Shown one piece after another: positions 2,583 to 39,513 of a stretch of DNA of 64,000 nt. This DNA comes from Bacillota bacterium. Lineage in GTDB: Bacteria > Bacillota > DTU065. The notes under the pieces were generated by a model. The model had not been told where the DNA came from. It was given only the letters and a program-made list of their open reading frames with translations, and ran no database searches. The stretch is taken from the NCBI GenBank assembly GCA_018435125.1, contig JAHDNZ010000036.1, positions 31,014-95,013 of the forward strand. Reading direction: 5' to 3'. The stretch's first letter is position 1. Every line of letters begins with the position of its first letter. The position numbers were made by a program, and so were the translations under genes.

Positions 2583-3659
2583 ATGAAAAAAGCTTATCAG
2601 CTAGTATCTTTAATCTTCACTGTTGTCTTTCTTTTCTCGGCGATTGCCTTTTCGGAGGTAAAGCCTCTTTCCCTTTCAGAGTTTACTCAGCTGGTATTAA
2701 ATAATAGCCCTGAATTGAAAAAGACTAAGATCACCTTGGAAATAAAAGAGATTGACTATACCAAAGCAAAATATCAATCCCATAACCTAGCCTTAAAAAC
2801 TCTTAATGAAAAAGAAACTACTCTCTCTTTGGCTAAAGAAACAGTTGCTTCTACTAAAACACAGGTTATCCTAGATGCTAGTGAACAGCTCCTAAGTTTT
2901 TTGGATGCTAAAGCTAATTTACTGGAAAAAGAATTGCTCCTTGTAAAAAGTCAAAGAGATCTTACCTTATTCGAGTTTAGATTTGAAAAAGGTTTAATTT
3001 CAAAATCTGAACTTGAAAGCCATAAAGAACAAGTCAATCAAAACGAACAAGGCAAAAAGCAAGCAGAATACAGTTTAAAACTTCAAGTTATGAAGCTCAA
3101 CCACTTAGCCGGTCTACCTCTAGAAGATGAACTTGAGTTAGATATACCTCTCCTACCCCTACCTAAATTACCTGATAAAGATGAGCTTTACAAGGTTTTA
3201 CTCCAAGGAAATACTGCTCTAAAGCAATTGAAAAGCCAAATGGATGAAGCATCTCTGGCTTTAGAACTGCTTCATCTCCAACATGAAGCCGCCTTGACCA
3301 TAAGAGAAAAAGAGCTCCAACTAGAGGAATTGCAGCTTGATTTTAAAACTAAAGAAAGTGAAATTCTCTTTTTAGCTGAACAAGAATATGCTAACCTTTT
3401 GGAACAACTAAGAAGAACCGAATCCTTTCTAAAAGAAATAACCGCTTCCCTCTCTAAAGTAACAGAAGTTACAGAGCAGTATAAGTTAGGTCTAATTGCC
3501 CAAAATGAGCTGGAAGAAGCAAAATCCCAGGTTAAACTAACAGAATTAAAGGCTCAAAAAGGGGTTTTTGCCCTTACCATTGCACTTGGACATTTAGGGC
3601 TCCTTCCTGAAAGCTCTTCTTTAGATAATTTTTCCCTAGCAGGTGGGCCTAATGACTAA
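2583..3659 (+). CDS. TolC-family outer membrane efflux protein (short)
   Basis: Signal peptide (MKKAYQLVSLIFTVVFLFSAIAFS). Extensive coiled-coil/alpha-helical repeat character typical of outer membrane efflux proteins. C-terminal ALTIALGHLGLL resembles the TolC repeat ending. GGAGG RBS. Confidence 0.55.
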   Translation: MKKAYQLVSLIFTVVFLFSAIAFSEVKPLSLSEFTQLVLNNSPELKKTKITLEIKEIDYTKAKYQSHNLALKTLNEKETTLSLAKETVASTKTQVILDASEQLLSFLDAKANLLEKELLLVKSQRDLTLFEFRFEKGLISKSELESHKEQVNQNEQGKKQAEYSLKLQVMKLNHLAGLPLEDELELDIPLLPLPKLPDKDELYKVLLQGNTALKQLKSQMDEASLALELLHLQHEAALTIREKELQLEELQLDFKTKESEILFLAEQEYANLLEQLRRTESFLKEITASLSKVTEVTEQYKLGLIAQNELEEAKSQVKLTELKAQKGVFALTIALGHLGLLPESSSLDNFSLAGGPND

Positions 3660-4923
3660 ATTAAAACCCCAATCAATTCTTAGCTTTACAATAGTTGTTT
3701 TAATTTGTTTTTTGTTATTTCCAGGTTCCAAAATCCTCGCTCTTACCTTTCCCGAAGCATTTAACCTGGCCAAAAGTAATTCTAAGGGGCAGCTTAGTCA
3801 ACTTGAAACCGAAATAGCTCGACTCTCTCAAGCTCCAACTTCATTTATAGGTAAACTGTTAGCCACTACTGAGATTAACCTAAAAGCAGATACCTCGGGC
3901 AGTAAAGATAGTACTAACCTAAGTTTATCCGCCTTAAGCCAGGCCGATAATTTAACCCTGGCTTCAATCACCTATAACCCTCTGACTTCCGGGATTTCTT
4001 TTGCTCTATCCATACAACTCTATCCCCTAAAAACCAACGCCTCCTTAGCCAAACAAAAGCTTTCCCCAGATGAACTGGAAATAAAAATCCACACAGCCAG
4101 ATTGTTTTTTGCGGTATTTATTGGCCGCCTTGAAGTACCTTTAATAGAAAAAGACTGTCAGCTAAAAGAAGAGCATTTATCCTTACAGAAAGAAAAATTT
4201 TCTTTAGGTTTAATCTCTTTTGCGGAGGTAAAAAATGCCGCTAAGAATTCGAGTACTCTGCAAACGGAACTGAAATTAGCTAGAGAAAAACTAGTCAAAG
4301 ATGAAAATGCTTTAAAAAAACTGCTCGGGCTGTCTAACTTAAATGATCTTGACTTACAATTAGAACAGAATTGGCCACATATAGAGCAACTAGAGATTAA
4401 TCCTGAGCTTATAGCGGCCTTAGATCTACACCTTTTACAAGCCCAATCCGAATTAAGCCAGCTGGAAAAACAAAAAAAACCGCAAGTTTTTGCCAGCTTA
4501 AATCTCAATCATTTACCAAAAAACCAAAATTTTTTAACTCAGATTAGTTTTAGTCACAATCTTTATAAACCTCAACATACAAAACAGATAGCTCTTGCTA
4601 AACTAGAAGTTACAAAGCAAGAAATTCTTCTTAACGAAAAAAAAGAGGCTTTTTATGAGGAGGTTAAGGAAGCCCTAAACAGTTATAAAAAGGCTCAAGA
4701 GACCTGGCAAAATGCCGCATCTTCCCTTGCAGAAACCACTGAACTACTCGATTTAGCCAATACAGGTGCTTCTTTGGGTATCATATCTGAAGGAGAAATT
4801 CAAGAAATCGCTCTCGAATATGAGTGGGCTAAGGTTAAGGTAAGTAAAACTGCCTTAGATTGTCTACTTAGTTACTTTAATCTGCAAAAATATTCTGCTT
4901 CTCTTCCAGAGCTTAGCCTGTAA
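3652..4923 (+). CDS. TolC-family outer membrane efflux protein (second tandem copy)
   Basis: ATG at 3652 with AGGTGG just upstream. The track's GTG at 3643 sits inside that RBS. Signal peptide, helical repeat composition. Overlaps the previous gene's end, so the two are translationally coupled. Confidence 0.5.
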   Translation: MTKLKPQSILSFTIVVLICFLLFPGSKILALTFPEAFNLAKSNSKGQLSQLETEIARLSQAPTSFIGKLLATTEINLKADTSGSKDSTNLSLSALSQADNLTLASITYNPLTSGISFALSIQLYPLKTNASLAKQKLSPDELEIKIHTARLFFAVFIGRLEVPLIEKDCQLKEEHLSLQKEKFSLGLISFAEVKNAAKNSSTLQTELKLAREKLVKDENALKKLLGLSNLNDLDLQLEQNWPHIEQLEINPELIAALDLHLLQAQSELSQLEKQKKPQVFASLNLNHLPKNQNFLTQISFSHNLYKPQHTKQIALAKLEVTKQEILLNEKKEAFYEEVKEALNSYKKAQETWQNAASSLAETTELLDLANTGASLGIISEGEIQEIALEYEWAKVKVSKTALDCLLSYFNLQKYSASLPELSL

Positions 4924-5135: not shown

Positions 5136-6872
5136 ATGCCAAGAACTTTACAGCGAGTATTTCTACTCCTTTTATTACTGCTCTCATTTAGCGTTCTTAC
5201 CTTTGCAGATTTTATGCCCACTAGGATTAAGGAACTAAGCTTAGAAATAAGCAGTCTGGAAAAATCAATGGAAACAGCAAAGTTAGAAATGCGACGCTTA
5301 AACTACGATTTTCTTGAAGAAAAAATAAACCTTTTGCAACTAAACTTAGAAAAGGCTACCTTACTTGCTAAAAACAACCCTGATAGCCAAGAAGCCATCC
5401 AATTATTAGCAGACATCACTTTTATGCTAAAAGAAATCTCACCTTTTTTGTATGAGTCTTTACCAGTTGAAACCAGAGGGATTTGGCTTGACAATGCAAC
5501 TGTTGATAGTTTTTTTACTAGAGAAGATATAAGCAATTACCTGGATAAATTAAAAGCAATTAATGTTAATATAATCTTTCCCGATGTATATGGAAAAGGA
5601 TCAGCCATCTACCCTAGCGATGTAGTCCCTCAAAACTGGCGTTTTAAAACCATGTACAATGGCAAAGATATTCTTAAGGACCTAATTACCGAAGCACATA
5701 AAAGGAATATTGAAGTGCATCCACTGGTTAGGGTTTTTGCTCTGCATAATGATCCCGAACATTTTTTGGCAAGCCATATAGATTGGCTAGATAAAACCAA
5801 AGCAAATAACTATACCCTAGCCAATGGATTTTATTGGCTTTCACCGGTACATCCTGGGGTAAGGGAATATCTAATTGCTATGTTGGTTGAGCTGGCTAAT
5901 AATTATGATATCGATGGTGTCCATTTAGACTATATTCGCTTTGATTCAGATTATGGCTACAACGAATATACTCGCAATCTCTATAAAAAGTTATTTGGAT
6001 TAGATCCCCTAGATTTTAAAACTCCGAAACAAGAAGAAGATTTCATTATTTTCAAAACCCAATTCATTAATAGATTTGTGGAACGTAGTTTTAAGGAATT
6101 AAAAGCCATTAAACCGTCTTTAATAATATCGGCTGCTGCTTGCTCTCCGTACGCCTGGTATAAGTTAGAAAAGGGCCAGGACTGGTTAAGTTGGATGCAA
6201 AATAGAACTGTCCATTTTTGTACGCCTATGTCTTACCGCAAGACTGCCACCGAATATCTAGCTGTAGTAAATAGTGATCTAAACTCCGTGGCCCAATCAG
6301 GTTATCTCTTCACCGGATTAGGGGTTTATCTTTTTAACGATACCGTTTTACTAGAACAGATAGCCGCTGGTAGAAAAGCTGCCCTGACCGGGCAGATGAT
6401 TTTTTCAACTACCAACATGAAACTTTCACACTTTGATGTCTTACAAAAGGGTCCCTGGAGTAAACCCTCCATGCCAACATACCGTGACCCTATGGAAGCA
6501 GCTTATCAAATTTTAATCGACTTATGTCAAAGAATTATTGAGTTTAAACCAGTCCTTGGTAACTATTCTTTACAACTTGAAAAGTATATTTCTACCATTG
6601 AAAAACTAGCTAAGCAAGTTAAGGATTTAGAACTTAAACCCTGGGATACAAGAGATCTGAGGGAAGAATCGCCAATGGATGTAACCCAACTAGAACCCAT
6701 AATAAAGGCCATTGAAAGTTTTATTTTACAGCTTAAGCGTGAGAGTAAGAATGAAAACCTTATTCCGGTTATAACGGCTGAAAGAATAATTACCGATTTA
6801 AGTTGGGTAAATAGTCTACTCCTACCACTTCTTTATACCAGTAAACCCTACAAATTTATAGCTACAAAGTAG
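5136..6872 (+). CDS. Secreted glycoside-hydrolase-like family 10 (GHL10, YngK-like) protein
   Basis: AAAGGAG RBS. N-terminal signal/TM segment. Central region (IFPDVYGKGSAIYPSD...GVHLDYIRF) resembles the family-10-like glycosyl hydrolase domain of Bacillus YngK-type lipoproteins. Confidence 0.5.
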   Translation: MPRTLQRVFLLLLLLLSFSVLTFADFMPTRIKELSLEISSLEKSMETAKLEMRRLNYDFLEEKINLLQLNLEKATLLAKNNPDSQEAIQLLADITFMLKEISPFLYESLPVETRGIWLDNATVDSFFTREDISNYLDKLKAINVNIIFPDVYGKGSAIYPSDVVPQNWRFKTMYNGKDILKDLITEAHKRNIEVHPLVRVFALHNDPEHFLASHIDWLDKTKANNYTLANGFYWLSPVHPGVREYLIAMLVELANNYDIDGVHLDYIRFDSDYGYNEYTRNLYKKLFGLDPLDFKTPKQEEDFIIFKTQFINRFVERSFKELKAIKPSLIISAAACSPYAWYKLEKGQDWLSWMQNRTVHFCTPMSYRKTATEYLAVVNSDLNSVAQSGYLFTGLGVYLFNDTVLLEQIAAGRKAALTGQMIFSTTNMKLSHFDVLQKGPWSKPSMPTYRDPMEAAYQILIDLCQRIIEFKPVLGNYSLQLEKYISTIEKLAKQVKDLELKPWDTRDLREESPMDVTQLEPIIKAIESFILQLKRESKNENLIPVITAERIITDLSWVNSLLLPLLYTSKPYKFIATK

Positions 6873-6941
6873 ATAACAACCTAAAACTAATCCCTTCCTT
6901 AAGTTTGTGCGTTTTGCTAGGCAATTGCTTAACAAATAGCT

Positions 6942-6970
6942 TTGACAAGAGCCCTAGGCTCAGGTATAAT
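6942..6970 (+). promoter_or_regulatory. Consensus sigma-A promoter for tRNA-Pro
   Basis: TTGACA (6942-6947), 17-nt spacer, TATAAT (6965-6970). Mature tRNA 5' end is at 6981. Confidence 0.75.
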
Positions 6971-6980
6971 TATTTTGTTT

Positions 6981-7057
6981 CGGAGTGTGGCTCAGTTTGG
7001 TAGAGCGCTGCGTTCGGGACGCAGAGGCCCGGGGTTCAAATCCCCGCACTCCGACCA
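6981..7057 (+). tRNA. tRNA-Pro (anticodon CGG)
   Basis: Cloverleaf by eye. Acceptor CGGAGTG/CACTCCG, D-arm GCTC..GAGC, anticodon stem CTGCG/CGCAG with loop TTCGGGA (CGG, G37), T-arm CGGGG TTCAAAT CCCCG, encoded CCA. Confidence 0.9.
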
Positions 7058-7072
7058 TATAAAACCATTGAT

Positions 7073-7113
7073 AGCCCTCACTTTGTACAAATTTTAAAGT
7101 GAGGGCTTTTTGT
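7073..7113 (+). terminator. Rho-independent terminator after tRNA-Pro
   Basis: AGCCCTCACTTT ... AAAGTGAGGGCT hairpin followed by TTTTT. Confidence 0.8.
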
Positions 7114-7136
7114 ACACAAACAGAAAAATGTAGCCA

Positions 7137-7602
7137 TCATGTAGCCAACGGCATTCTAGGGCAGGAAGTCTCAATTACTCGATTAAAATACTTATACCAA
7201 AGACTAAGAAGCCACCGGCCATTTAACGAGTTGTTTCTTTGCATGGCTACCTTAACTATGACTCCGCCAAACAACCTCAAAAGGTTTCTCTTCCTTCGGT
7301 TCTTCTTTTGGCAATGCCGTTTAGCTCTAGCTGAAGGTGTTAGACCAAACTCGAAAGCGATTACTCGCATTTGATCGAAGAGCTGTTTTTTCTTAGTTAG
7401 GAGCGGATTTGGTATACTGTTGGTCTCTCCAGCCTTGTTGGCTTATTCAATTACAAATCCTTCTTTGCCGATGATCTCTGTAAATTCTTGGTAGCTGACA
7501 TAAACGTCTAAGTAGGTTGCTAGCATATCCACATAAACATTGGACATTAAGTCAACTTCCTGTAGCTCCTTCGCAATTCGGTTGAATGCTTTCTGTCTAA
7601 CA
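7137..7602 (-). pseudogene. Phage terminase small subunit (P27-family-like) remnant, N-terminally truncated and interrupted
   Basis: Minus-strand frame 7443-7602 reads ...KAFNRIAKELQEVDLMSNVYVDMLATYLDVYVSYQEFTEIIGKEGFVIE then a stop. The downstream ORF 7137-7370 begins with EFGLTPSARAK, which is the characteristic C-terminal motif of P27 terminase small subunits. The two pieces are broken by a stop or frame change. Confidence 0.4.
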
Positions 7603-7633
7603 ATCAACCCTTCTTTAATCTTATAGAATTTAG

Positions 7634-8150
7634 CTACTGTTTTAATCTGGAATACTGGTCATAGATCATGTGTGTCTCCATGTGGTCTTTGCAGTATTGG
7701 TACTCCGAAAACCGATTACATCCTATAGCTTTACCGGGTCTTAAAGCTTGTTTAAGCACATTGAAGAAGGAGTAGACCAACGTCTCTATCTTGCCGAGTA
7801 TATTCAGAATCTGACCATACATCCCATTCATCATATCTTCTCTTAATTAACCCTTCCAAAACTTTACCATTACTCCTTACCCATGATAAAAAATTCTTTA
7901 GTTCGACAGCAGCTGTCTTACCAGACTTTATAATCTTCCACATGTCCGACCTATCTATAATGTTTCCTATTCCAATATTAAATACAAAACTAACAATGGC
8001 GTCAAACTCCTGATGTTTTAGATCTACATTAATGGTCTCAAACAAGTCATTAGGTTCCTTTACTCTACTTTGAAGATCCTTCGTGAATAAATCCTTAGCA
8101 GCTTCAGGTGTAATACCGCGGGCGGAAACCCACTCACGCTGTATAACCAC
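7634..8150 (-). pseudogene. Phage-type lysozyme (GH24/Phage_lysozyme family) gene disrupted by a frameshift
   Basis: ORF 7752-8150 contains the QEFDAIVSFVFNIGIGN and GLIKRR motifs of phage lysozymes. The C-terminal continuation lies in another frame (7634-7834). No functional full-length frame. Confidence 0.55.
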
Positions 8151-8321
8151 TGTTTGTCCGACTATATTAATCGCTTGCAGGTGCGGAGATGGTCGCCGTG
8201 CGTGTAGTGGAGGAAACTGATAAGAAACAATGGAATGTAATTATGTATTTTCAAGTCAATACTACACACCATGTAAAGCAAAAAACTTTCCGTTGTCGAT
8301 TATCGTGAAAGCGAGGAAACT

Positions 8322-8909
8322 ATGAAAAAGCCTTTTGTTATCAGCATTTCTGGCATATCTGGCAGCGGTAAAACCACAATCGCTAACGCGCTGAAGAAAC
8401 GGGTTGCAAATACTGAAGTCATTAACTTCGATAATATTTCGGGAGATTTGCCCGGCCAAGATTACTGCGAATGGTCGGAATCAGGAGCAGACTGCAACGA
8501 ATGGATACTTACTCCAATAATTGATGAAATAGAGCGCTTATGCTCCGATCCGCTTGAATATATTGTTCTTGATTATCCCTTTGGGACAGCTCACCGTAAG
8601 GTTGGAGCATATGTAGATATTTCTGTTTGGATAGATATACCGCTTGATATATCACTTGCACGACGTATACTGCGTGACTTTACACGCTGCTCAAAAATAC
8701 GCCATCCACTAAAAGGACATGTAGCGGAAGAAGTATCATCATATCTTGATTATTACCTTGCTCGACATAGGGACACATATTTACGCCATATTGAAACAAT
8801 TAGACCATTTGTCGATTTAATTGTTGACGGTACAAATACGCCAGAAGAAATTACAGATGAGATATTGTCCTATATCAATACCCGTAACCATTTACGATGC
8901 CCTCATTGA
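8322..8909 (+). CDS. P-loop NTPase / small-molecule (nucleoside-type) kinase family protein
   Basis: N-terminal Walker A ISGISGSGKTT. About 195 aa. Noticeably higher GC than flanks. First gene of a tightly packed 4-gene cassette. Confidence 0.5.
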   Translation: MKKPFVISISGISGSGKTTIANALKKRVANTEVINFDNISGDLPGQDYCEWSESGADCNEWILTPIIDEIERLCSDPLEYIVLDYPFGTAHRKVGAYVDISVWIDIPLDISLARRILRDFTRCSKIRHPLKGHVAEEVSSYLDYYLARHRDTYLRHIETIRPFVDLIVDGTNTPEEITDEILSYINTRNHLRCPH

Positions 8910-9480
8910 TGAAATCAACGACCCCGTCTGCGACCCGGTACTGCTAAGAGAATATATGGACAAATGGGACGGCGAAGTATTCATTGAAGTACTGCAGTTT
9001 TCGCCGGACAAGACAGTTTTAGAAGTAGGCATTGGAACAGGGCGGCTTGCGGTGCGCATTTGCGGTAAATGCGAACGTTTCACCGGCATTGATATATCAC
9101 CGAAAACCATTGAGAGAGCAAAAGAAAACCTCCGGGGTTTTAATAACGTTTCTCTTATTTGCGGCAACTTTCTTACTTATCAGTTTAATGAGAGATTTGA
9201 TATAATCTACTCATCTCTCACTTTTATGCACATTCAGAATAAGCGAGCGGCAATTCAGAGAGCAGCAATCCTTCTTAATCCCGGTGGTCGGTTTGTATTG
9301 TCTATTGATAAAAACCAGCAGATGGAAATTGATTATGCAAGTGGCTATGGTAGTCGGAAAATTGTTGTTTATCCCGACACACCGGAGGAAATCACCGCTT
9401 TAATTACCGAAGCTGGATTAAATATCGAGAAACAATTTGAAACCGAGTTTGCTTTGATTATCACTGCAAGGAAAGGATGA
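8857..9480 (+). CDS. Class I SAM-dependent methyltransferase
   Basis: Motif I VLEVGIGTGRLA plus post-I acidic residue. Start is ambiguous: TTG 8821, ATG 8857 or ATG 8956. The 5' end overlaps the kinase gene in another frame. Confidence 0.55.
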   Translation: MRYCPISIPVTIYDALIDEINDPVCDPVLLREYMDKWDGEVFIEVLQFSPDKTVLEVGIGTGRLAVRICGKCERFTGIDISPKTIERAKENLRGFNNVSLICGNFLTYQFNERFDIIYSSLTFMHIQNKRAAIQRAAILLNPGGRFVLSIDKNQQMEIDYASGYGSRKIVVYPDTPEEITALITEAGLNIEKQFETEFALIITARKG

Positions 9481-10079
9481 TAAAAACCATGCATCTTGAA
9501 ATCAAGCCTCTAACCCCCGAACTTGCTGCTGATTTCTTTGACTTCTTCGAAAATCGAGCGTTCACAGATAATTCCCCATATCGGTGTTATTGCCAGTTCT
9601 ATCAAATGACCAAGGAACAGGAGAAAGCAGCGTTCGACAAAGTAGACGGGCCTGATATCGGTCGCGTGGCTCGAAAAGTAGCCGAGCGACAGATCGATTC
9701 AGGCATCCTGCAGGGATATCTTGCGTTTGCTGACGGCGTGACTATCGGCTGGTGCAACGCGAACGACAAAGCGAACTTTCCCATAGAATCGTGTACCGGT
9801 GAGCGTTTTTACGCGCCAGCCAAAAAGCGAGAAAAGGCCGTGGTGTGTTTCGAAATTGCCCCGGAATTTCGCGGGAAGGGTGTCGCCACCGCTCTTTTGC
9901 TGCGGGTCGTTGCCGACGCAAAAGCCGAAGGCTATATCGCCATCGAGGGTTTCCCCGTTGTGCGCAACAAACGATATGAATGGGATAACGCCGGCCCCAT
10001 TCGGTTATACGAAAAGGTCGGGTTTATAAAAGTAGCGGAAACGGAAAAAAATGCGGTCATGCGAAAGGAATTAAGATAA
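9477..10079 (+). CDS. GNAT family N-acetyltransferase
   Basis: Acetyl-CoA binding motif VCFEIAPEFRGKGVATALL. ATGA overlap with the methyltransferase stop. Higher-GC cassette. Confidence 0.7.
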   Translation: MIKTMHLEIKPLTPELAADFFDFFENRAFTDNSPYRCYCQFYQMTKEQEKAAFDKVDGPDIGRVARKVAERQIDSGILQGYLAFADGVTIGWCNANDKANFPIESCTGERFYAPAKKREKAVVCFEIAPEFRGKGVATALLLRVVADAKAEGYIAIEGFPVVRNKRYEWDNAGPIRLYEKVGFIKVAETEKNAVMRKELR

Positions 10080-10528
10080 TGAAATACGAATTTGATGCAG
10101 AAATCAAACGGCTTGAGGGTAAAATCCAGTGGAGCGTCTTTTATTTTCCCGAATCTGCTGTAGACTGTTTTGGCTCAAAGGGTAACATTCCTGTCAAAAT
10201 CATGGTGGATGGACACCCCTTTGAACACACGCTCTTGAGTTCTCGAAACGGACATTATCTCGTTTACAACGAATTTATTCGCCGCGCTGTCGGCAAAGAA
10301 ATGGGTGACAGTGTACACGTTACTTTGGAGAAAGACGAACAACCGAGAATTTTTACGGTTCCGGCTTATCTCGAAACGATTCTCAGGGATGGAGGCGTTT
10401 TGGAGACCTTTCTGAAACAGCCGGATTATTTGAAGCGCGAGCAAATCAACAAAATCGAATTGGCTAAGAAAGAAGAAACCAAGGCGAATCGGATTAAAAA
10501 GCTAATTACAGAGTTGGGAGATATCTAA
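10079..10528 (+). CDS. DUF1905 / YdeI-like domain protein
   Basis: TAATG overlap with the GNAT gene. Sequence pattern (KIQWSVFYFP...GNIPVKIMVDGHPFEHTLL) resembles the DUF1905 beta-barrel domain often fused or adjacent to YdeI/OmdA. Confidence 0.45.
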   Translation: MKYEFDAEIKRLEGKIQWSVFYFPESAVDCFGSKGNIPVKIMVDGHPFEHTLLSSRNGHYLVYNEFIRRAVGKEMGDSVHVTLEKDEQPRIFTVPAYLETILRDGGVLETFLKQPDYLKREQINKIELAKKEETKANRIKKLITELGDI

Positions 10529-10613
10529 AATGATTTGTCAAAACTGTAAGAAAAACATCCGCTAAATAGAGATATATGTCCCGATTGTCGGCTATCCTGT
10601 AAAACCAATCCCT

Positions 10614-10960
10614 GTGCCACCTGGTGGTAAAATCAACTTCGGCAACTTCGACTGGTTCGTGCCGTATATACAGGACGATAAGACGCTCATTATCACTGAG
10701 AAGGTAATCGAAAAGAGGATGTATCACAGTGAAGAAGCTTCCATCACATGGGAAACGTACGCTATGCGGAAATATCTGAACAGCGAGTTTTATAATTCGT
10801 TCAACGAAGCCGACTGCTAACAAGATATTTTTGCTGAGTATTAGTGAGATCCTCAAATATTATGGTGACAGCGGACAGATAAAAGCATGGTATATGTACC
10901 CGAATTGCGAATGATGCAAGGATAAGTTTTTGCCGTGGATTGATGACCAATAACATCAAC
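10614..10960 (+). pseudogene. DUF6273-like domain gene fragment, frameshifted
   Basis: Frame 10614-10820 reads ...ITWETYAMRKYLNSEFYNSFNEADC. The continuation ...KIFLLSISEILKYYGDSGQIKAWYMYPNCE lies in a different frame. No start context and no intact ORF. Confidence 0.4.
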
Positions 10961-10985
10961 CGCCACGCTGTGGAAGTAAAAAGAA

Positions 10986-11025
10986 CCCCTGCTAGAAGTG
11001 CAGGGGTATTTGTTATTTATTTATT
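10986..11025. terminator. Bidirectional Rho-independent terminator
   Basis: CCCCTGC tagaagt GCAGGGG hairpin (10986-11006) with a T-rich tract on the plus side and TTCTTTTT on the minus side. Lies between convergent units. Confidence 0.7.
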
Positions 11026-11767
11026 CCGTGCTTTCAAAACGCTCATTCATAATTAAATTTCTACAGTAAGTATATTCATCATCCCCGCAACCTTGCAAAA
11101 TTATCACATCTTCGCTATATGACTTTACACTCCAAAAAATCCCTTGATCTTTTATTGAACAAGATCCGGTATGAAAATTAGAAGAATCGACATCAGGTAT
11201 AATTACATCTTCACCCAGAAAGGAATAGAACCCACAATATGGTTCACTATTGTCTTGATAGTTTCTAATTCGAAAATATTGTCGTCCTCCGAATAGTCCT
11301 TTATCACAAGAAACAGTAACAGATGCTCCGCAGTAAATGTTTTCATCCTTGTTTCGAAGTAGAAAAACAAACTCCAGCTTATTGGTATTCATTGTAAAGA
11401 ACATCTCATCTTCAGATACCGTTGGCATATATCTATCAGGAGCTGCCAAACAGATTATGTCTTTTCTTAAATACGCTGATAAATCAACAGTCTGAAAACT
11501 TCGATTAAGTCTTTGTTTTAGCTTGAAATTATTACCAGAAGCTTCTCCAAGTGAATTAATAAATGCATATCCTGTAGCTGCTTCACTTTGATAGCGTTCA
11601 CAAATGCCGATCAGTTTATGTTCGGTACTATCTCCAATATATAATGCTGCTCCGAGAATATCATTGTCCAAATTATATAGTTCAAAAACAAATTGACGAG
11701 TTATTACTAGCTCTCTATTAGAAGATGAATACACCCCATATGGTATTGTGTGATTCATTTTTCTCAC
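11021..11767 (-). CDS. Hypothetical cytoplasmic Cys-rich protein (about 248 aa), no recognisable domain
   Basis: AGGAGGTGA RBS 5 nt upstream of ATG. No signal peptide. Several Cys residues in the C-terminal half. Island context. Confidence 0.5.
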   Translation of the reverse strand: MRKMNHTIPYGVYSSSNRELVITRQFVFELYNLDNDILGAALYIGDSTEHKLIGICERYQSEAATGYAFINSLGEASGNNFKLKQRLNRSFQTVDLSAYLRKDIICLAAPDRYMPTVSEDEMFFTMNTNKLEFVFLLRNKDENIYCGASVTVSCDKGLFGGRQYFRIRNYQDNSEPYCGFYSFLGEDVIIPDVDSSNFHTGSCSIKDQGIFWSVKSYSEDVIILQGCGDDEYTYCRNLIMNERFESTE

Positions 11768-12251
11768 CTCCTAGCAACAAATATCTAGAAATTTGCTCTT
11801 TACAAACTAAATAGTCTTGGTTTTCCCTTCTTGTCCAGCTTTTTACTTTGCTACAACTAATAGTTATGTTTTTGCACAAGTAATCTTTCCAATATTAGTT
11901 CAATAAAAGATGGTCTTAACAAGTATAAAACAGCATTAAGATAAGCTAACACCTTAGCTAAATTTCCATCAACCTAGTTTAGCTTTTCTACCATCTTCGT
12001 TTAGTAACTGACGTGGATGTTAATTTTCTTAAAATAGAGAACTCTAATGTTTCTTGCCATGAATTAGACAGTTGAGTTCGTCCCCTTGCCTATTTCCTAA
12101 AAACTCAATGTTTCGGTTTGAACAGGTTTAGCTAATTAAGGGTATTCATTTCCATCTTCTTTCTATAAACAACTTTTAGGCAGGAATATACATTCCTTTA
12201 TCTAAAGATCAATATGGTACATTTTTACCAGCAAACAAGGAGTTGAATTCC

Positions 12252-12881
12252 ATGGATATCAGTGGCCTTTTATCTTTGACATATATGTTAGCATATCTAG
12301 AAATCAAAAACCCTCAGAATAAACAGCTAAATAATATGTTTACTTCTTTATCTAAAACTCGGATTGCAGTAGTTGGTGCAATCTCAGGGTTTTTGGTGCC
12401 ACTGGCTATATGTCTGCCCGCTTTATTGTATTTAGGAGCTGGTTTTTTATATACAATTATGGCTGAAACTCTAATCCCTGGAATAACAGGATTTCAAGGC
12501 GAACCCTTTACAAACATATTTACGCAAAACCTTAGTTTTTTTAGCCAGATACTGGTTTTAATTCTAAAATATACAGCTCTGCCATCAATATTAATGGGTT
12601 TATGTGATATTACTTTGCGTCACAGATTTTTTAATAACCCCCAAAATAATGTATGGCCGTGGCTTTACAAACATTGTGCAGCCCCTATTTCTGCTTTTTT
12701 TATTATTATATCTATTTTAACATGGTCCTCTCGGAAAGCGATGTTTGGCATAGCCGGCTTGTTAGTTATCAACAGTCTTCCAGCTGTTTTTTTGGGATTA
12801 CTATACCGAGGTATTCTGCTTGCAACACTAGACAAGCAATTACTCATAATAACCAAATTTAAAAACCTTAGGTCTAGTTAG
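12252..12881 (+). CDS. Hypothetical polytopic membrane protein
   Basis: AAGGAG 10 nt upstream of ATG 12252. The TTG at 12243 in the track is too close to the RBS. Five to six predicted hydrophobic helices. Confidence 0.5.
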   Translation: MDISGLLSLTYMLAYLEIKNPQNKQLNNMFTSLSKTRIAVVGAISGFLVPLAICLPALLYLGAGFLYTIMAETLIPGITGFQGEPFTNIFTQNLSFFSQILVLILKYTALPSILMGLCDITLRHRFFNNPQNNVWPWLYKHCAAPISAFFIIISILTWSSRKAMFGIAGLLVINSLPAVFLGLLYRGILLATLDKQLLIITKFKNLRSS

Positions 12882-13186
12882 AACTCAGTTAACCATTTTC
12901 ACTAATATGCATACCAACTAATACTAAACTGAGAGCTTCTCCTTATAAGAGTTGGTAACTAAATTGTTATCGTCTTGATTGTGTGTAAGTTTTCAAATTA
13001 TCTGACTTAATCTTTGGACTATGTTCCTAGCACGTCTTTATTCATTGTTTAACTGAAAAAAGAAGTGTAATCTTCTATCATTTGACCTTCGGTGATTGTT
13101 GCGATTGCTGCTTTCTTTCTTAAGATTGATGAGACTGCAAATATCGGTAAGACCATGTCCAAAATGTCTTTAAAAAAGTAGCTTCC

Positions 13187-13225
13187 CCCTATTACAGGGA
13201 AAAGCTACTTTATTAATATTTAAAG
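13187..13225. terminator. Rho-independent terminator (serves the small minus-strand peptide gene; bidirectional shape)
   Basis: AAAAAAGTAGCTTCCCC ctattaca GGGAAAAGCTACTTTATTAATATTT. Confidence 0.6.
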
Positions 13226-13242
13226 AGGGATTTTACCCTGCT

Positions 13243-13344
13243 TTACCAACCGCATCCGCCGCCGTTCATAGTCATAATGACCAAAAGAATCAGTATTAAA
13301 AACAAGCCTGCTGCTTCTTGGCCATTTGAAGCCTTATCTACCAT
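13243..13344 (-). CDS. Small hydrophobic peptide, 33 aa (MVDKASNGQEAAGLFLILILLVIMTMNGGGCGW), YjcZ-like
   Basis: Below the ORF-track cutoff, found by eye. GGGAGG RBS 8 nt upstream of ATG 13344. The terminator hairpin lies 20 nt past the stop. Architecture is a hydrophobic core with a Gly/Cys-rich tail, as in YjcZ-family sporulation peptides. Confidence 0.45.
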   Translation of the reverse strand: MVDKASNGQEAAGLFLILILLVIMTMNGGGCGW

Positions 13345-13597
13345 AGCTGATCCTCCCTTCTAGAAAGGTTACTATAACTTATGCTGCGTTTTCAAAATCG
13401 CCATGAACTATTTAACTCATCTTATTGTTTTTTTAAAACCTGCCATCGAGTTCTAGAAGAGATTACCGGATTTCTAAAACTGAAGTTAGTACCTTTAATG
13501 TTCTGCTGATTTTCTCAAGACCTTTAACCTTGAAAAAACACAACTTTTGCAGGTCAAATTGTTTTTATGTCCAAATCCATCTACAGGAGGGAGCCAA

Positions 13598-14422
13598 ATG
13601 AAGCTAGCAGAGATAGTTGTGGAAAATGTAAGGAGTTTTAAAAAACTATTAAAAATTGACTTTACCGATCACTACACCGGTTTACCTAATGATCGTTTGG
13701 TTATTGTAGGTACTAATGCCTCTGGTAAAACTACACTTTTAGAAATAACTATTTCACTCTTAAAAGCTTTTTATCATGAGCAAGATTCTCTCTATAAGGA
13801 ACTTAGCTCAGCCGGAGTAGCTACCAAGGTGGTTTTTCTAGATCAAAACGATAACCGGCTTGCTCTTGAACTTAAAGATGGCAGGCTTTCACTAGAAGGT
13901 AAGAGTGAGCTTTTACCCTTTTATTTGTATTTCCCGGCGGAGCGCTATTTTTCTGAGCCAGCTCAATCAGAGCCAATAAAAATAAACCCTTGGGGCTATG
14001 AGTATAAAAACGGAGAAGAATACTTTACTAACTATTTAGATAATAGCTTTTCTGAGTTAGCCACCCGTTTTTTTTCAGGACGTATACTGGCTAAAACAGA
14101 TGATCAGTACACACTATCGGCTTCTGCCAACGATCCCACCCCGATACCATTAAAAAGACTACCTTCTGGCGAAAAGCAAGCCTTAATTTTGCTTACGATC
14201 ATTGCTAAGCATCTTAAAAGGAGATCGCTGGTGATGATTGATGAATTTGAACTTAGCCTTCATCCTACAGCTCAAAGAAAGCTTTACTATCTTCTCAGTG
14301 CTTATCTTAAAGAGAGAGATTCGCAACTAATTGTGGCCACTCATTCTCTAGAAATTGTCCGTGCATCCCTGGAAACAGAAGTTTTTAGTCTAGACGAAAT
14401 CTTAGGGGGGCTAAAGACATGA
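13598..14422 (+). CDS. AAA_21/ABC-type ATPase (AriA/AbiLi-like), short form, about 274 aa
   Basis: GGAGGG RBS 6 nt before ATG 13598. RecF/SMC-like N-terminal strand MKLAEIVVENVRSFKK, Walker A GTNASGKTT, signature-like LPSGEKQAL, Walker B/H-loop VMIDEFELSLHP (the DEPE..LHP hallmark of AAA_21). Confidence 0.65.
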   Translation: MKLAEIVVENVRSFKKLLKIDFTDHYTGLPNDRLVIVGTNASGKTTLLEITISLLKAFYHEQDSLYKELSSAGVATKVVFLDQNDNRLALELKDGRLSLEGKSELLPFYLYFPAERYFSEPAQSEPIKINPWGYEYKNGEEYFTNYLDNSFSELATRFFSGRILAKTDDQYTLSASANDPTPIPLKRLPSGEKQALILLTIIAKHLKRRSLVMIDEFELSLHPTAQRKLYYLLSAYLKERDSQLIVATHSLEIVRASLETEVFSLDEILGGLKT

Positions 14423-15273
14423 GCTACTTATCATTAGATCAACTGCTCCTTAGAATCCGCTCTGGGAAGGGACTAGCTATAGTCATTGAAGGCATTAAAA
14501 ACGGTGATGATGAGTGGGTATACTCCCAGTGGTTTGGTAATTTAGCTCATTTAGTAACTTTTTACCCCCAGGATGGTTATAGCCGTGTCTATGATGCGGT
14601 TGAAAATCTCAGAAATAAAAGCCCTCACAAACTTATTGCCGGCATTATCGATCGTGACTTCGCAACTGAAATTGAAGTTAAAGCACAGTTTGAAGCAGAT
14701 TATGCGCAACATGTCTATCGCACTAAACGTTATACCTTAGAAAATTATCTTTTAGAACCGGAAGGTTGGCTAGAGATAGCCTCTCTTTTTTGGCGTCATA
14801 AACATCCTGTGGGTTTTCGAACTTTGGAAGAATGCAGCCAAACTATTGAGTTGGTTTTTAAATCATTTTTACCTGCTGCAGCTTATAATTGGCTTGTCTG
14901 GGATTTAGGGCAAAAATACGGGCCCAAATATTATCTGAATTATAAAGACACTCCTAATCTAGATCCGGAAAAACTTTATTTTGATCTTCGTATCTACTGC
15001 CAAAGAGAAGGTCTGCCTAGTCCTGATGAATATGAATTAAGACTTAATCTCCTTCGAAGGAAAAAAGAGCTCTGGCATCAAAAGGTTAGTGGCAAAATGG
15101 TTTTTAATTATCTGATCGAAAACATTCCGGTTCCTAGAAGCCGCCCGGATAAACATCTTTTTATAAACTATTATGTATCCAGAACGGAAGCTCCAAAAGA
15201 GCTAAACCGCCTGGTTAATTTTCTGATCACTAAATATCTTAAGGAAGCATCTCTTGCCAAGAGTGCAATCTAG
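14419..15273 (+). CDS. DUF4435/Toprim-like protein (AriB/OLD-C-terminal-like), putative nuclease partner
   Basis: ATGA overlap with the ATPase stop. Acidic motifs VIEGIKNGDDEWVY and GIIDRDF are compatible with the Toprim E...DxD pattern of DUF4435. About 284 aa, matching the typical size of that family. Confidence 0.45.
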   Translation: MSYLSLDQLLLRIRSGKGLAIVIEGIKNGDDEWVYSQWFGNLAHLVTFYPQDGYSRVYDAVENLRNKSPHKLIAGIIDRDFATEIEVKAQFEADYAQHVYRTKRYTLENYLLEPEGWLEIASLFWRHKHPVGFRTLEECSQTIELVFKSFLPAAAYNWLVWDLGQKYGPKYYLNYKDTPNLDPEKLYFDLRIYCQREGLPSPDEYELRLNLLRRKKELWHQKVSGKMVFNYLIENIPVPRSRPDKHLFINYYVSRTEAPKELNRLVNFLITKYLKEASLAKSAI

Positions 15274-16411
15274 AAGGTTCGCCATCTAAAAATACACTGT
15301 AAAGGTTTTGATTTGCCATTTGCCAGGTTACTATATCATCATCTAGCTGCAGTTCGCCTTTTTCGGCAATCGAATAGGTTTTTCCTGACAACCTTCGCAA
15401 AAATCGCTCTAGATCATTTCTTTCCAGTGTTAATTTGCTAGACTCTCTTGCCCCAACAACCTTGATCATTTCCGAGATTAGCTCAGAGAGAGGACGTTTG
15501 GTAACCGCAACAATCTCTGCCAGTAAAAGACCAAGCCAAAGCCCATCTCCTACACCTAAATGGGGTCTATAGATAATCTCGTCGCCTACAAAAAAATCTG
15601 CCTCTTTTTCTACATCAAGACCTGCTCTTTCTGCCACACGATCAAAAAAGCGTGACCTATCCCAGGCTCTGGCTACACTTTTTAAACTTCCCTGTTCCTT
15701 AAGATAGCGAGCTATTAGAGCTGCTACAACTTCAACCTTTAGAACCTCCCCGGTGTCAGCGACAAATTCAGCCTTTGTACCTAAACTATTAAGTTTTAGG
15801 CCTAAATCAGCTCGTAAACGCAAGACTGATTCTCCTACTGTATTTATAGATATATCTCCATCTGAGCGAACTCGCCATAGACCTTTAAAAGTTATTATCT
15901 GTGAGAGTAAACTAAACAATTTAGCATCTTCCAGTCCACCCAAAGCTAAAAAAATCGACCCTAGCTTATCAGCTGCAGTTTCTCGACGCAGATGCCTAAT
16001 ATACTCTCTTTGTACATCTAAACGCATAGTTTTGCCACGTTTTCTTCTTTCCAAGCGTTTGATTGAAAAAGTGCCTTCAACATAACTTCCGGTTGTAGTT
16101 AAAAAAGTATAACTATTATCTTCTACATAACATGCTGAAGCACTAAGTCTTCTTGCCATAAGAGAGAGTTCTGGCAACAAACATTCTCCGGTTTGGGCTA
16201 CATCAAAACCGTTTGCCAGCAAAAGATCTACAGCTTGCAAAGCATAAACAGGAACCCCAATACTCTTGCTAGGGTCTTTATAACCGACAAGAGCTAATCC
16301 ACTTTGGGTTTTTTCTTTAAGGTAATCGGCCAAGTGTCCCCTTACCATAGGTGTATCATCTACAAGCTTTCCACTTTTAACCAAGTAGCCGTCTTTTACA
16401 GCCTCGTTCAC
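15239..16411 (-). CDS. Hypothetical protein with weak alpha-D-phosphohexomutase-like features (divergent active-site loops)
   Basis: GTG start with an AGGAGG RBS. Its start region overlaps the stop of the upstream CotS-like gene (TAATGTG). RLSASACYVE resembles the TASHNP loop with HNP lost. RSDGDISI resembles the DGDGDR metal loop. The 3' end overlaps the convergent gene by 35 nt. Confidence 0.3.
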   Translation of the reverse strand: MNEAVKDGYLVKSGKLVDDTPMVRGHLADYLKEKTQSGLALVGYKDPSKSIGVPVYALQAVDLLLANGFDVAQTGECLLPELSLMARRLSASACYVEDNSYTFLTTTGSYVEGTFSIKRLERRKRGKTMRLDVQREYIRHLRRETAADKLGSIFLALGGLEDAKLFSLLSQIITFKGLWRVRSDGDISINTVGESVLRLRADLGLKLNSLGTKAEFVADTGEVLKVEVVAALIARYLKEQGSLKSVARAWDRSRFFDRVAERAGLDVEKEADFFVGDEIIYRPHLGVGDGLWLGLLLAEIVAVTKRPLSELISEMIKVVGARESSKLTLERNDLERFLRRLSGKTYSIAEKGELQLDDDIVTWQMANQNLYSVFLDGEPSRLHSWQEMLP

Positions 16412-16412
16412 A

Positions 16413-17456
16413 TTACCACCTCCTAGTAGGTAGCTTAGGGAAAGGTTTCCAGGCTAGGGTTTCTTTAGGTTTGGTTTTTTCATCCACTGCAAGTTTTTTT
16501 TCACTTGCTTCTAATTCAGAATCTACACTAGTGGCATCATTAAAAGCTTCTGGTGCCTCCCCTTGGTAGCTTATTTCTTCTGGGCAAGGCATAAGCGCAT
16601 CAAGCGAACTAGTTTCAATTTCTTCCGGTTTACTAAGTGTCACAGATTCATTCTCGGTAACACTACTTTTTGCAGGTAAGATACTTTGTGTTTCTAAGTA
16701 TTCACTTACAGGTACACTAAGCTCACTTACCGGCAAATTGCTATATTCCTGCGTTGCTATAAGAGGCCATAGCATTTCCATTAACTCCTGTAACTTTTCC
16801 AAAGATGGCTCAACAGTGTCCTTTTTTGGTCCTATTTGTCCTAAAAGAATAGCACTATCCCAAATTAATTGTTCAGCCTGGACTAACTCCGTAGTGTTTA
16901 CAGGCAAGACCTCCTTATATTTTTGCAACACAAATTCTCTCGTTTTTTCATTGGCGCAATCGTAGAGAAGATGGGCTAAACTTAAGAGAGGATTTTCTAC
17001 CCGCAGATTCTCAAAAGCTCCCAGAGTCAATTCTCCGTATCTACCTACATATAAAGAATCGGGCATAATGTGAATCGAAAGCACATTACCATGAATCTCA
17101 AAAAGTGCAAGCTTATGGAGTCTGGCTAGCAATTTAGCTGCACGTTCCAAATCGAGCAAATTGGTTAAATCCAGAGCTCTTCCTTGAGGTTGATCGACAA
17201 GATAATAATAATTATCTAAAAGATAACCATTATCTGCTCCTTTATAAGGCAAAACCACCTTTACTAAGCCTGTTTTTGCAAGTTGAAGAGCTCGCTTTTG
17301 AGCCTCGTTAAAATCGCCTTTTTCCCAGGTTTTAAGTAAACGATTGCCACGTGATGTCTCCCATAAATTGCCTTCATATCTATAGACTTCAACTTGCCAG
17401 TAGGCTGCTGCCTTGCTTACCTCGTTATAGAGACGCAATTCCTCTGCAAAGTTCAT
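16413..17456 (-). CDS. CotS-family (spore-coat kinase-like, phosphotransferase fold) protein
   Basis: GGGAGGAAGG RBS. N-terminal YWQVEVYRYEGNLWE and a kinase-like core with an HxD-type region IHGNVLSIHIMPD, as in CotS/YutH-like proteins. Confidence 0.45.
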   Translation of the reverse strand: MNFAEELRLYNEVSKAAAYWQVEVYRYEGNLWETSRGNRLLKTWEKGDFNEAQKRALQLAKTGLVKVVLPYKGADNGYLLDNYYYLVDQPQGRALDLTNLLDLERAAKLLARLHKLALFEIHGNVLSIHIMPDSLYVGRYGELTLGAFENLRVENPLLSLAHLLYDCANEKTREFVLQKYKEVLPVNTTELVQAEQLIWDSAILLGQIGPKKDTVEPSLEKLQELMEMLWPLIATQEYSNLPVSELSVPVSEYLETQSILPAKSSVTENESVTLSKPEEIETSSLDALMPCPEEISYQGEAPEAFNDATSVDSELEASEKKLAVDEKTKPKETLAWKPFPKLPTRRW

Positions 17457-17576: not shown

Positions 17577-18335
17577 TTACTTTTTGATGCTTTGCCTTAG
17601 AATCTCTCTTTTGGCAATATTTAAAAATTGAGTATTTGTAGGACAACAATTACTGGCTAAACTAGTAGGAAGTATCGAAAGAATATTCCTACTATTTGTC
17701 TTCCAGGCAGAATGCAATGCGCTACGGATAGCAGCTTCTACATTAACAGGTGAAGTATGATATTTTTTAGCTAAATTAGGATAAAGAGACTTAGTTAGTC
17801 CATCTATAAGATAAGCTTTGTTGCTTAATATTAAAAGCAAAGCTTCTTTGAGATAACTGTGGCCTTTTAACTGACTCTTAATCCCTATGTTTTTCAAGAA
17901 CTCTTCTACGCAGTATGTTAGTGTATGATCATCGACTACTATACCTATCAGACTTTTATCAAGGACAATCTCTTCTTTAAAGGCACAAACCTCTCTGATA
18001 GTTTTTTCTAAGGCAGTTAAATAAAAGGGCTTTACTAAACAATAGCTAGCACCCTTTTTTATAGCTGTTTGTAAAATTTCTTCTTTGGAAAAAGCAGTGA
18101 TTACTAAAACCTTAGGTAGTTCGCTGCTTAAAGTATCCAATACCTCTAGTCCGTCTAATATGGGTAAACCCAGATCTAGAATTAAAAGTTCCGGTCTTAG
18201 TTCTCTTACTTTTTTAACTGCTTCTCTACCATCATGACCTACCCCGATTACCTCAAAATCAGGCTGAAAGGAAAGATACTGCACCATGATGTCACAAAGA
18301 GCATGATTTTTATCAACTACTAAAATAGAGACCAT
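17577..18335 (-). CDS. spo0A: Sporulation master regulator Spo0A (receiver domain plus Spo0A_C DNA-binding domain)
   Basis: Receiver domain with conserved Asp residues (VVDKN...LILDLGLP). C-terminal Spo0A-specific motifs LKGHSYLKEAL, LTKSLYPNLAKKYHTSPVNVEAAIRSALHSAW and CPTNTQFL. Start set at ATG 18335 (AAGGGGG RBS) rather than the track's 18368. Confidence 0.8.
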   Translation of the reverse strand: MVSILVVDKNHALCDIMVQYLSFQPDFEVIGVGHDGREAVKKVRELRPELLILDLGLPILDGLEVLDTLSSELPKVLVITAFSKEEILQTAIKKGASYCLVKPFYLTALEKTIREVCAFKEEIVLDKSLIGIVVDDHTLTYCVEEFLKNIGIKSQLKGHSYLKEALLLILSNKAYLIDGLTKSLYPNLAKKYHTSPVNVEAAIRSALHSAWKTNSRNILSILPTSLASNCCPTNTQFLNIAKREILRQSIKK

Positions 18336-36465: not shown

Positions 36466-37094
36466 CTTCTAATTGCCCCCCCTAATTTTTCTTGTTTTGA
36501 ACTTAAAATTAAGCTGTGGTATTGAATAATACCTTTGCTCTTACCCCTCTTATTTCCTCATCTTAAATGTTTTTCCTGCTTAAAAATCTTAATTTCTTAC
36601 TTAAATTGTAAAAAACACTATTTTCATCTAAACCCTCATCAGCCAAAAGACAATAGTCTTTCCATCATTTTCCTCAAAATATTATGATGTTAAAGGATTG
36701 CCTGATAATAGTTCTCCCGAAAGAACAGTTCACTTTCTTTCTATATACCCATATAAGTTAAACTTCGTTTTGTTAGATTTTATTACCACTAATCTCCCCC
36801 ATTAAACTATCATTATTCATTCAAAAAACAAAACAACCCTCACACACTTAACAATAACAATATTCTCTACACTTATATTTAAATCCTTCCTTTAAATAAA
36901 TAGAAGATAAATAACAAAAAGTCTTCGAGCTGTAACAATCTTCCAAAGATGTTTTGGCTATCAAAGCTTTTCTCCCACTAACTCTTTTATAGTTTTAACT
37001 AACTGTTTTCTTTTAGCTTCGTAATCTTTGCTGTATTCCACAAATACTTATTTGCATCAAAAAAAGCTAGGAATAACAGGAAATTACAAAGCTA

Positions 37095-37135
37095 CCCCAA
37101 GACCTAATTTACAAGTCTTCGGGGCAGTTTTTTTT
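37095..37135. terminator. Strong hairpin plus T8 terminator in the intergenic spacer (T-run on plus strand; also usable by the upstream minus-strand gene)
   Basis: CCCCAAGAC ctaatttacaa GTCTTcGGGG followed by TTTTTTTT (37128-37135). Preceded by an A-run, so bidirectional in form. Confidence 0.55.
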
Positions 37136-37279
37136 ATACTTAACTTATCTAGTTGGAAGTCTCTTTTCCGTCTAGATCACTTACAGAGTTATCGTGTTTA
37201 GAATTGATTATTTCAAAAGCACTCTGGTTTTTGTAAGAAAAATAATTTTAATCATCACCAGAGTGCTTAACACTAATTA

Positions 37280-39485: not shown

Positions 39486-39513
39486 AAGACTGCAGGCATT
39501 TGCCCACAGTCTT
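39486..39513 (-). terminator. Rho-independent terminator of OMP gene
   Basis: AAGACTG...CAGTCTT hairpin 15 nt past the stop, followed on the minus strand by a T7 run. Confidence 0.75.

Follow-up and report, generated by a model that had tools for sequence, protein, structure and literature searches.

A probable layered mosaic, rather than a single genomic island, between tRNA-Pro(CGG) and the spo0A block of a Bacillota bacterium

Is the DNA that lies between an intact tRNA-Pro(CGG) gene and a conserved block containing spo0A a single genomic island that entered at the tRNA, or a pile of unrelated pieces? The stretch analyzed here, hereafter the window, is 64,000 nucleotides of a Bacillota bacterium (assembly GCA_018435125.1, contig JAHDNZ010000036.1, positions 31,014 to 95,013), and all coordinates refer to it. 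An earlier note had proposed one island at 6942-15300, made of decayed prophage and mixed cargo that included a gene pair encoding an ATPase and a DUF4435 protein. We give a probability of roughly 0.6 to a different reading, in which several layers accumulated at a variable spot between the tRNA and the conserved block and formed a mosaic that can no longer move. Layer 1 (~7137-8150) would be debris of a tailed phage, namely a pseudogene for the small terminase (terS) and a lysozyme gene reduced to its 3′ part, and layer 2 (~8200-11010) would be horizontally acquired genes of higher guanine-cytosine (GC) content and small-molecule-modifying type, followed by a DUF6273 pseudogene; judging by the relatives available, both layers appear species-specific. 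Layer 3 (~11010-13300) would be low-GC accessory DNA that is common to the sister species only and was apparently exchanged after the species split. From 13.6 kb onward, the ATPase/DUF4435 pair (13598-15273) included, the DNA would be backbone. Gene content, decay, the limits in composition, the synteny break at ~11010 and the vertical descent of the pair are shown. The tRNA or its vicinity may once have received a phage or other element, whose integrase, attachment repeat and most genes may then have been lost by deletion.

Composition limits the foreign part sharply. The mean GC content of the window is 0.387 with a standard deviation of 0.030 over 600-bp windows, and the highest 600-bp value of the whole window, 0.50, is found at 9501. 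At third codon positions (GC3), the methyltransferase (0.40), GNAT (0.53), DUF1905 (0.47) and DUF6273 (0.47) genes compare with 0.25-0.35 in backbone genes, and native-like values are seen in the kinase (0.31), lysozyme (0.31), ATPase (0.31) and DUF4435 (0.32) genes. A higher-GC cassette of four genes had been described here; the methyltransferase, GNAT and DUF1905 genes are indeed raised, but the kinase gene is not. In a tetranucleotide scan, the strongest anomaly of the 64 kb lies at 8.0-11.2 kb, with a robust z of 5.6-17 and a peak of 17 at 9.0-10.5 kb, and the 12 most deviant 1.5-kb windows all fall within 7.5-11.75 kb. From ~11.5 to 15.3 kb, z stays between -1.4 and +1.7, as in native DNA. 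The predicted discontinuity is thus real and far beyond chance, but it spans ~3 kb rather than 8 kb: composition is unlike that of the host at 8.0-11.2 kb only, and not at 11.5-15.3 kb. As a separate observation, the lowest-GC stretches of the window (0.29-0.32) are two long intergenic regions at 36300-37300 and 38400-39500, which are mildly deviant (z 2.6-2.9) and in which no Rfam family was matched.

Synteny places a boundary at nearly the same position. A scan of species-representative genomes with Spo0A gave a best match of 34% identity and hence no close relative there. The relatives used are metagenome contigs found through homologues of a PGM-like protein encoded beside the pair, graded at 99%, 87-89%, 54-59% and 52% identity. 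The same-species contigs covering these stretches (99.7-100% identical) have the identical arrangement. The contig of a sister species (L046, ~87% identical) aligns collinearly with window positions 26437 to ~11010, and the match ends ~15 nt past the stop codon of a gene for a Cys-rich protein. Beyond the break, a gene for a secreted protein of 723 amino acids with native composition replaces the DUF6273, cassette and lysozyme genes, and the ATPase, DUF4435, peptide, membrane protein and Cys-rich genes are common to both species. The sister species thus differs from the window leftward of ~11010 as far as its contig reaches, and the content of 11.0-15.3 kb is common to both. Composition and synteny therefore agree on a boundary at ~11.0 kb, and gene content alone had put it 4 kb too far out.

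The ATPase/DUF4435 pair had been counted as island cargo. Pairs of this kind are usually mobile defence cargo (PMC9122126), which would favor a single island or prophage of ~8.4 kb (6942-15300) that integrated at tRNA-Pro, carried the pair and has since decayed. The relatives argue against this. The pair adjoins the block of PGM-like, CotS-like and spo0A genes in lineages down to 52% identity (L046 and L049-L059); in the 52%, 54% and 57% lineages, it is convergent with the adjoining PGM-like gene and the 3′ ends overlap, and contigs of the 59% lineage stop within a convergent gene at the same place that aligns as a DUF4435 ortholog. In the window, the 3′ end of the DUF4435 gene overlaps the convergent PGM-like gene (15239-16411) in the same way. 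Identity to the 52% relative is 51% for the ATPase, 64% for the DUF4435 protein, 52% for the PGM-like protein, 52% for the CotS-like protein, 50% for Spo0A and 65% for RsmB. With copies from six relatives aligned, the DUF4435 protein is 91% identical in the sister species and 64-71% identical in distant lineages, where Spo0A is ~50% identical, and it is thus more conserved than Spo0A; its ratio of nonsynonymous to synonymous divergence (dN/dS) is 0.105. Since the pair is syntenic wherever contigs reach, shows core-like divergence and has native composition, these comparisons indicate that it is vertically inherited, clade-wide backbone and not part of an island, and it should not be counted as island-borne defence. 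A single 8.4-kb island including the pair is largely refuted, for 13.6-15.3 kb by this synteny, and the relatives have no tRNA there. In one sample (L049), the DUF4435 gene is broken into pieces of 135 and 107 amino acids. The PGM-like protein itself (390 amino acids) is degenerate, as it matches only a piece of PGM domain III, and its gene is conserved beside the CotS-like gene in the relatives examined.

The pair resembles the PARIS system, which consists of the ATP-binding cassette (ABC) ATPase AriA and the DUF4435/TOPRIM nuclease AriB (PMC9122126, PMC11464382), in being a two-gene operon with an overlapping stop and start. The first gene (13598-14422, forward strand) encodes a short, AriA-like ABC-type ATPase of 274 amino acids (AAA_15, 81.1 bits; AAA_21, 73.9 bits; PADLOC AriA, E=8e-24), and the second (14419-15273, forward strand), whose start overlaps the ATPase stop by 4 nt, encodes an AriB-like, TOPRIM-like DUF4435 protein (PF14491, 31.4 bits with a cutoff of 27; PADLOC AriB, E=9e-10). 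The published rule for detecting PARIS asks for at least 32 bits to AAA_15 or at least 27 bits to AAA_21, together with at least 27 bits to DUF4435 (PMC9122126), and the pair passes it with 81, 74 and 31 bits. However, the solved AriA has 464 amino acids (about 53-55 kDa) compared to the 274 of the window ATPase, in which only the C-terminal ABC motifs match, so that the architecture of AriA is not reproduced. The PADLOC AriA models match the ATPase in two partial stretches, and the AriB model covers residues 23-163 of the DUF4435 protein. The solved structure nearest to the ATPase is AriA (8v45/8ux9, E=1.4e-5), with residues 179-254 aligned to AriA 357-429 only, and no solved chain, not even that of AriB, matches the DUF4435 protein in sequence. 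A single-sequence AlphaFold model of the DUF4435 protein had a mean confidence score (pLDDT) of 38 and was not used. All seven DUF4435 orthologs have an invariant Glu in a VIEG stretch and an IIDRDF stretch, and we infer that these are the TOPRIM Glu and DxD motifs. The activity that defines PARIS is abortive infection against phages, set off by anti-restriction proteins and involving tRNA cleavage. Also unlike PARIS, the pair lies outside a mobile hotspot, is fixed beside the same core gene clade-wide and is under core-like purifying selection. A more specific reading, which we consider distinctly improbable, is that the pair is a domesticated, clade-wide core PARIS-like module with a minimal 274-residue ATPase, whose position near spo0A would be locked by the 3′ overlap with the PGM-like gene and which purifying selection would have maintained throughout the divergence of the lineage.

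Between the pair and the boundary at ~11.0 kb lies what we read as an older accessory layer. A gene at 11021-11767 (reverse strand) encodes a Cys-rich protein of an uncharacterized family; it is intact in the window and a pseudogene in the sister species, where the copy has two stops and an insertion of 13 amino acids. The gene was previously called an orphan, which is ruled out by its 89 representative homologues at E≤1e-3, of which 35 are at E≤1e-10. Four of the nine homologues scanned have an N-terminal HTH_3 domain of XRE type. The family (homologues P0170-P0257) also has a conserved C-terminal domain of ~130 amino acids for which there is no Pfam model. A multi-pass membrane protein is encoded at 12243-12881 (forward strand), as judged by hydrophobic segments read from the sequence; it had no Pfam, PHROG or PADLOC match and is 94% identical in amino-acid sequence in the sister species. 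A gene for a hydrophobic peptide of 33 amino acids, MVDKASNGQEAAGLFLILILLVIMTMNGGGCGW, lies at 13243-13344 (reverse strand), was called as a gene in contigs L001 and L003 and has its own terminator-like hairpin at 13182-13203. The peptide is conserved in the sister species except for one Gly; its gene stands alone and might encode either a small membrane peptide or a product like a type I toxin.

The divergence of this layer differs from that of its surroundings. Compared with the sister species, synonymous divergence (dS) is 0.085 for the Cys-rich gene, with a dN/dS of 0.73, and 0.117 for the membrane protein gene, whereas it is 0.32-0.42 for the ATPase/DUF4435 pair and 0.46-0.84 for the PGM-like, CotS-like, spo0A and rsmB genes; the accessory layer is thus 4-8 times less diverged at synonymous sites than core genes. 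Sliding identity to the sister species falls stepwise at ~13.2 kb. Because of this low dS and the identity step, the low-GC segment at 11.0-13.3 kb seems to have been shared or exchanged between both species after their split. The layer is absent from distant relatives whose contigs extend past the ATPase. That it is common to the sister species is a further point against a single island that includes it.

Part of the patch on the other side of the boundary, at 8.2-11.0 kb, is demonstrably foreign in origin by sequence similarity. The first gene (8322-8909, forward strand) encodes a P-loop protein of nucleoside/nucleotide-kinase type (PF00485/AAA_18) that resembles PRK08233 (NF006085, 167 bits, below the cutoff of 198), followed by a class I S-adenosylmethionine-dependent methyltransferase (8857-9480, forward; Methyltransf_25/31/11), a GNAT N-acetyltransferase (9477-10079, forward; PF00583; GC 0.50) and a small protein of DUF1905 plus OmdA/YdeI type (10079-10528, forward; PF08922, E=3e-15; PF13376, E=2e-8). 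The cassette is followed by a DUF6273 pseudogene (10530-10960, forward), which was recognized by a PF19789 match (E=2e-8) on one open reading frame (ORF) piece and by translation of the frame, and which has several in-frame stops, as described earlier. A bidirectional terminator-like hairpin at 10985-11007, found by a terminator scan, stands just beside the synteny break. The GNAT gene is the clearest foreign gene of the patch: it has 1320 homologues, and the best 120 are 70-86% identical and include annotations from the unrelated taxa Saccharofermentanales, Oscillospiraceae, Herbinix, Victivallaceae and Lentisphaerae.

The cassette also resembles arrays of detoxification and modification genes of Clostridia type. 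Window positions 8822-10025 are 80% identical in DNA to a contig from an unrelated organism (L066, 46% GC), in which a methyltransferase and a GNAT gene follow in the same order after a kinase-type P-loop domain, within a long array of GNAT, NUDIX, MazG-like, APH-like and lactamase_B genes that ends at a DDE transposase. In that contig, the kinase-type and methyltransferase domains form a single protein of 391 amino acids. The window methyltransferase is 71% identical to residues 197-387 of this fusion protein, and the kinase part is divergent (35% identity). The motif EILSYINT..N/H..YDALIDE is shared with the fusion protein and, in the window, is split over two frames at ~8885-8895, so that the window kinase/methyltransferase pair is most simply read as a frameshifted fusion. 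Compared to the array, the window holds a four-gene piece only, with the kinase frame-shifted from the methyltransferase and no transposase adjacent. Within the patch, it is likely that only the GNAT gene, the YdeI-like gene and possibly both kinase/methyltransferase halves are active.

The phage part is short and decayed. A terS pseudogene of the P27 family (~7137-7607, reverse strand; PF05119, E=3e-10) has one in-frame stop, beyond which the frame resumes; residues 15-108, across the stop, are 59% identical to terS of Bacillus/Geobacillus phages. The 3′ fragment of a phage lysozyme/endolysin gene (7752-8150, reverse strand) matches PF00959 (E=5e-20) over profile positions 33-125 of 125 only, matches PHROG endolysin families and is ~35% identical to phage lysozymes. 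No lysozyme-like sequence was found upstream of it in any frame. T4-type lysozymes carry their catalytic Glu and Asp in the N-terminal part, which is the part missing here. Phage lysozyme and terminase fragments at this place had already been noted, and the domain matches bear them out. Viral-contig scans with the lysozyme fragment and with the GNAT gene gave no relatives, a plasmid DNA search with 7058-11030 gave nothing, and a phage DNA search with the same segment gave only a 146-nt terS match. We considered whether the lysozyme-then-terS order requires two phages and rejected this, because the same order occurs naturally in lambdoid genomes and one contiguous phage fragment is enough. The terS pseudogene also contains the site of an insertion-sequence polymorphism (7394-7404). 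There, the same species carries an element in metagenome sample ERZ27283066 that is absent from the window; its terminal inverted repeats are GGGGCTACTGAA/TTCAGTAGCCCC, and it has duplicated 6-8 bp of its target, TAGTTA[GG]. The element is seen by its ends only, as the tail of contig L004 (12270-12381) and the head of contig L001 (1-153) diverge from the window exactly at 7394-7404, and the assembly breaks there.

Whether the patch entered at the tRNA is a separate question. The tRNA-Pro gene with anticodon CGG (6981-7057, forward strand; ARAGORN; Rfam tRNA, 68.6 bits) is intact and is the single tRNA of the window according to both ARAGORN and Rfam. As previously reported, it has a consensus promoter: a sigma-70 promoter at 6942-6970 (forward strand) with TTGACA, a 17-nt spacer and TATAAT matches at 12 of 12 consensus positions. 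A hairpin followed by a T-run at 7073-7107 (forward strand), formed by the 12-nt inverted repeat AGCCCTCACTTT/AAAGTGAGGGCT and TTTTT, is likely the tRNA terminator. Phage-derived sequence starts at ~7137, 30 nt beyond this terminator, so that phage debris and compositionally foreign cargo do lie directly 3′ of the tRNA gene, as had been proposed. Rfam recognized only the tRNA over the region, and one sub-threshold small RNA match at 13171-13269 was dismissed as chance.

The patch resembles cryptic prophages and tRNA-linked islands, such as tyrosine-integrase elements with a duplicated tRNA 3′ end, in its site 3′ of an intact tRNA, its packaging and lysis remnants, its unrelated cargo of atypical composition and its difference between close species. 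As a positive control, a rumen contig (L094) has a tRNA-Pro(cgg) gene at 77-152, followed by 14 kb of DNA, a tyrosine integrase and, next to it at 14206-14230, the 25-nt tRNA end repeated without mismatch. In a viral contig (L067, 9238-10441), a copy of the same tRNA-Pro 3′ end comes after a PF00589 integrase. The identical 25-nt tRNA-Pro 3′ end is thus a genuine integration target in other, unrelated bacteria. A metagenome scan with the 25-nt end gave 115 loci, all in unrelated organisms that share the tRNA alone, and it was used only as this positive control for the attachment repeat; a scan with a 48-nt tRNA pattern gave no match.

The rumen contig, a true example with the same 25-nt end, shows what the patch lacks. 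The 25-nt tRNA-Pro 3′ end has no second copy in the window at three or fewer mismatches, in agreement with the earlier failure to see one by eye, and blastn-short with the whole tRNA region gave no match longer than 13 nt. The best degenerate match in 7058-17000 was 16 of 25, inside the shuffled-control maxima of 14-19, and a repeat search over 6500-16000 gave short pairs at chance level only. No recombinase domain was found by Pfam in any scanned ORF, and tblastn of the whole window with two integrases from tRNA-Pro-associated elements gave a best E of 0.24; the description of the element as degraded and without an integrase is therefore correct. Around the cassette in the window, neither a transposase nor inverted-repeat ends were found. 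Compared to tRNA-linked islands, the patch has neither integrase, nor tRNA-end repeat, nor demonstrated empty site, and its phage sequence is only ~1 kb. Integration of the patch at tRNA-Pro is thus plausible but unproven, because the analysis recovered neither an integrase nor a repeated tRNA 3′ end nor an empty site. The intact tRNA, the phage remnants with foreign cargo beside it and the use of the same 25-nt end elsewhere speak for one integrated island, but with the missing integrase and repeat, even a degenerate one, added to the synteny, divergence and composition of the right-hand part, we consider that reading very improbable.

The distant relatives bear on a second alternative, in which the tRNA is not involved. 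In the 54% relative, a GFO_IDH_MocA gene lies 300 bp from the ATPase gene, and in the 52% relative, one gene lies between them. In the window organism, the GFO_IDH_MocA ortholog (80% identity over 84 amino acids, same orientation) is ~18 kb upstream of the ATPase, with GGDEF, MacAB-like, TolC-like and GHL10 genes, the tRNA and the patch in between. The GHL10 homologues of distant relatives are followed by a gene for a CodY-like helix-turn-helix protein and a sigma-factor cluster without a tRNA, and neither flank adjoins a tRNA-Pro. Because this spacing and these neighbors differ, the whole interval appears variable or rearranged at family depth, and the tRNA does not appear to be an ancient anchor of the neighborhood. 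The locus could then be a rearrangement junction or a general insertion hotspot, where the block of GGDEF, MacAB-TolC-like, GHL10 and tRNA-Pro genes was brought beside the ATPase-spo0A block and foreign DNA piled up by transposon-mediated or illegitimate recombination, the adjacency to the tRNA being coincidental. The transposase at the end of the donor-like array, insertion sequences active at this spot in the population and the missing integrase and attachment repeat fit such a history. However, the debris starts just 30 nt past the tRNA terminator, integration into tRNA-Pro genes with the same 3′ end is proven for other organisms, and no transposase or inverted-repeat ends flank the cassette. 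We regard this alternative as a serious rival, less probable than the layered mosaic.

Several points weigh against the layered mosaic. The phage debris is only mildly atypical in composition (z 1-2.6), and the low dS of the accessory layer comes from two short genes, of which one is decaying. The relatives are all metagenome contigs and could be chimeric, although finding the pattern again in independent assemblies speaks against this. No empty site was recovered, as the sister contig ends 3.3 kb past the break, short of any tRNA, and because of this, we infer rather than observe two things, the tRNA terminator as the left boundary and the direction of the change (gain here or loss there). 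With these points taken into account, the layered mosaic remains our preferred reading. Nothing in the patch is still mobile, and it is an ordinary kind of genomic scar, about half the length first claimed.

The earlier inventory of features was essentially correct, including the Cys-rich gene, the membrane protein, the peptide and the ATPase/DUF4435 pair. Its statement that core genes resume with CotS-like, spo0A and rsmB genes stands in that this block is conserved in relatives, but the name CotS-like rests on one sub-threshold match (TIGR02906, E=1e-3), and an exact look-up of this ORF found it not on record. Elsewhere in the window, an FMN (flavin mononucleotide) riboswitch is found at 56868-56980 on the reverse strand (115 bits). 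Two TolC-like OEP genes with a MacAB-type pump (2583-4923) and the Spo0A gene (17577-18335) occur in the same organism. This combination hints at a Bacillota lineage that forms spores, possibly has two membranes, is uncultured and is known from metagenomes of digesters and fermentations only.

The value of the result is mainly corrective, in that an apparent island is a stack of probably unrelated layers. For the lineage itself, the core-like PARIS-type pair in an uncultured spore-former is a small lead on the fixation of defence modules. If the pair were indeed a domesticated core module, this would point to a standing cellular role, for example in controlled RNA or tRNA cleavage, rather than to transient mobile defence.

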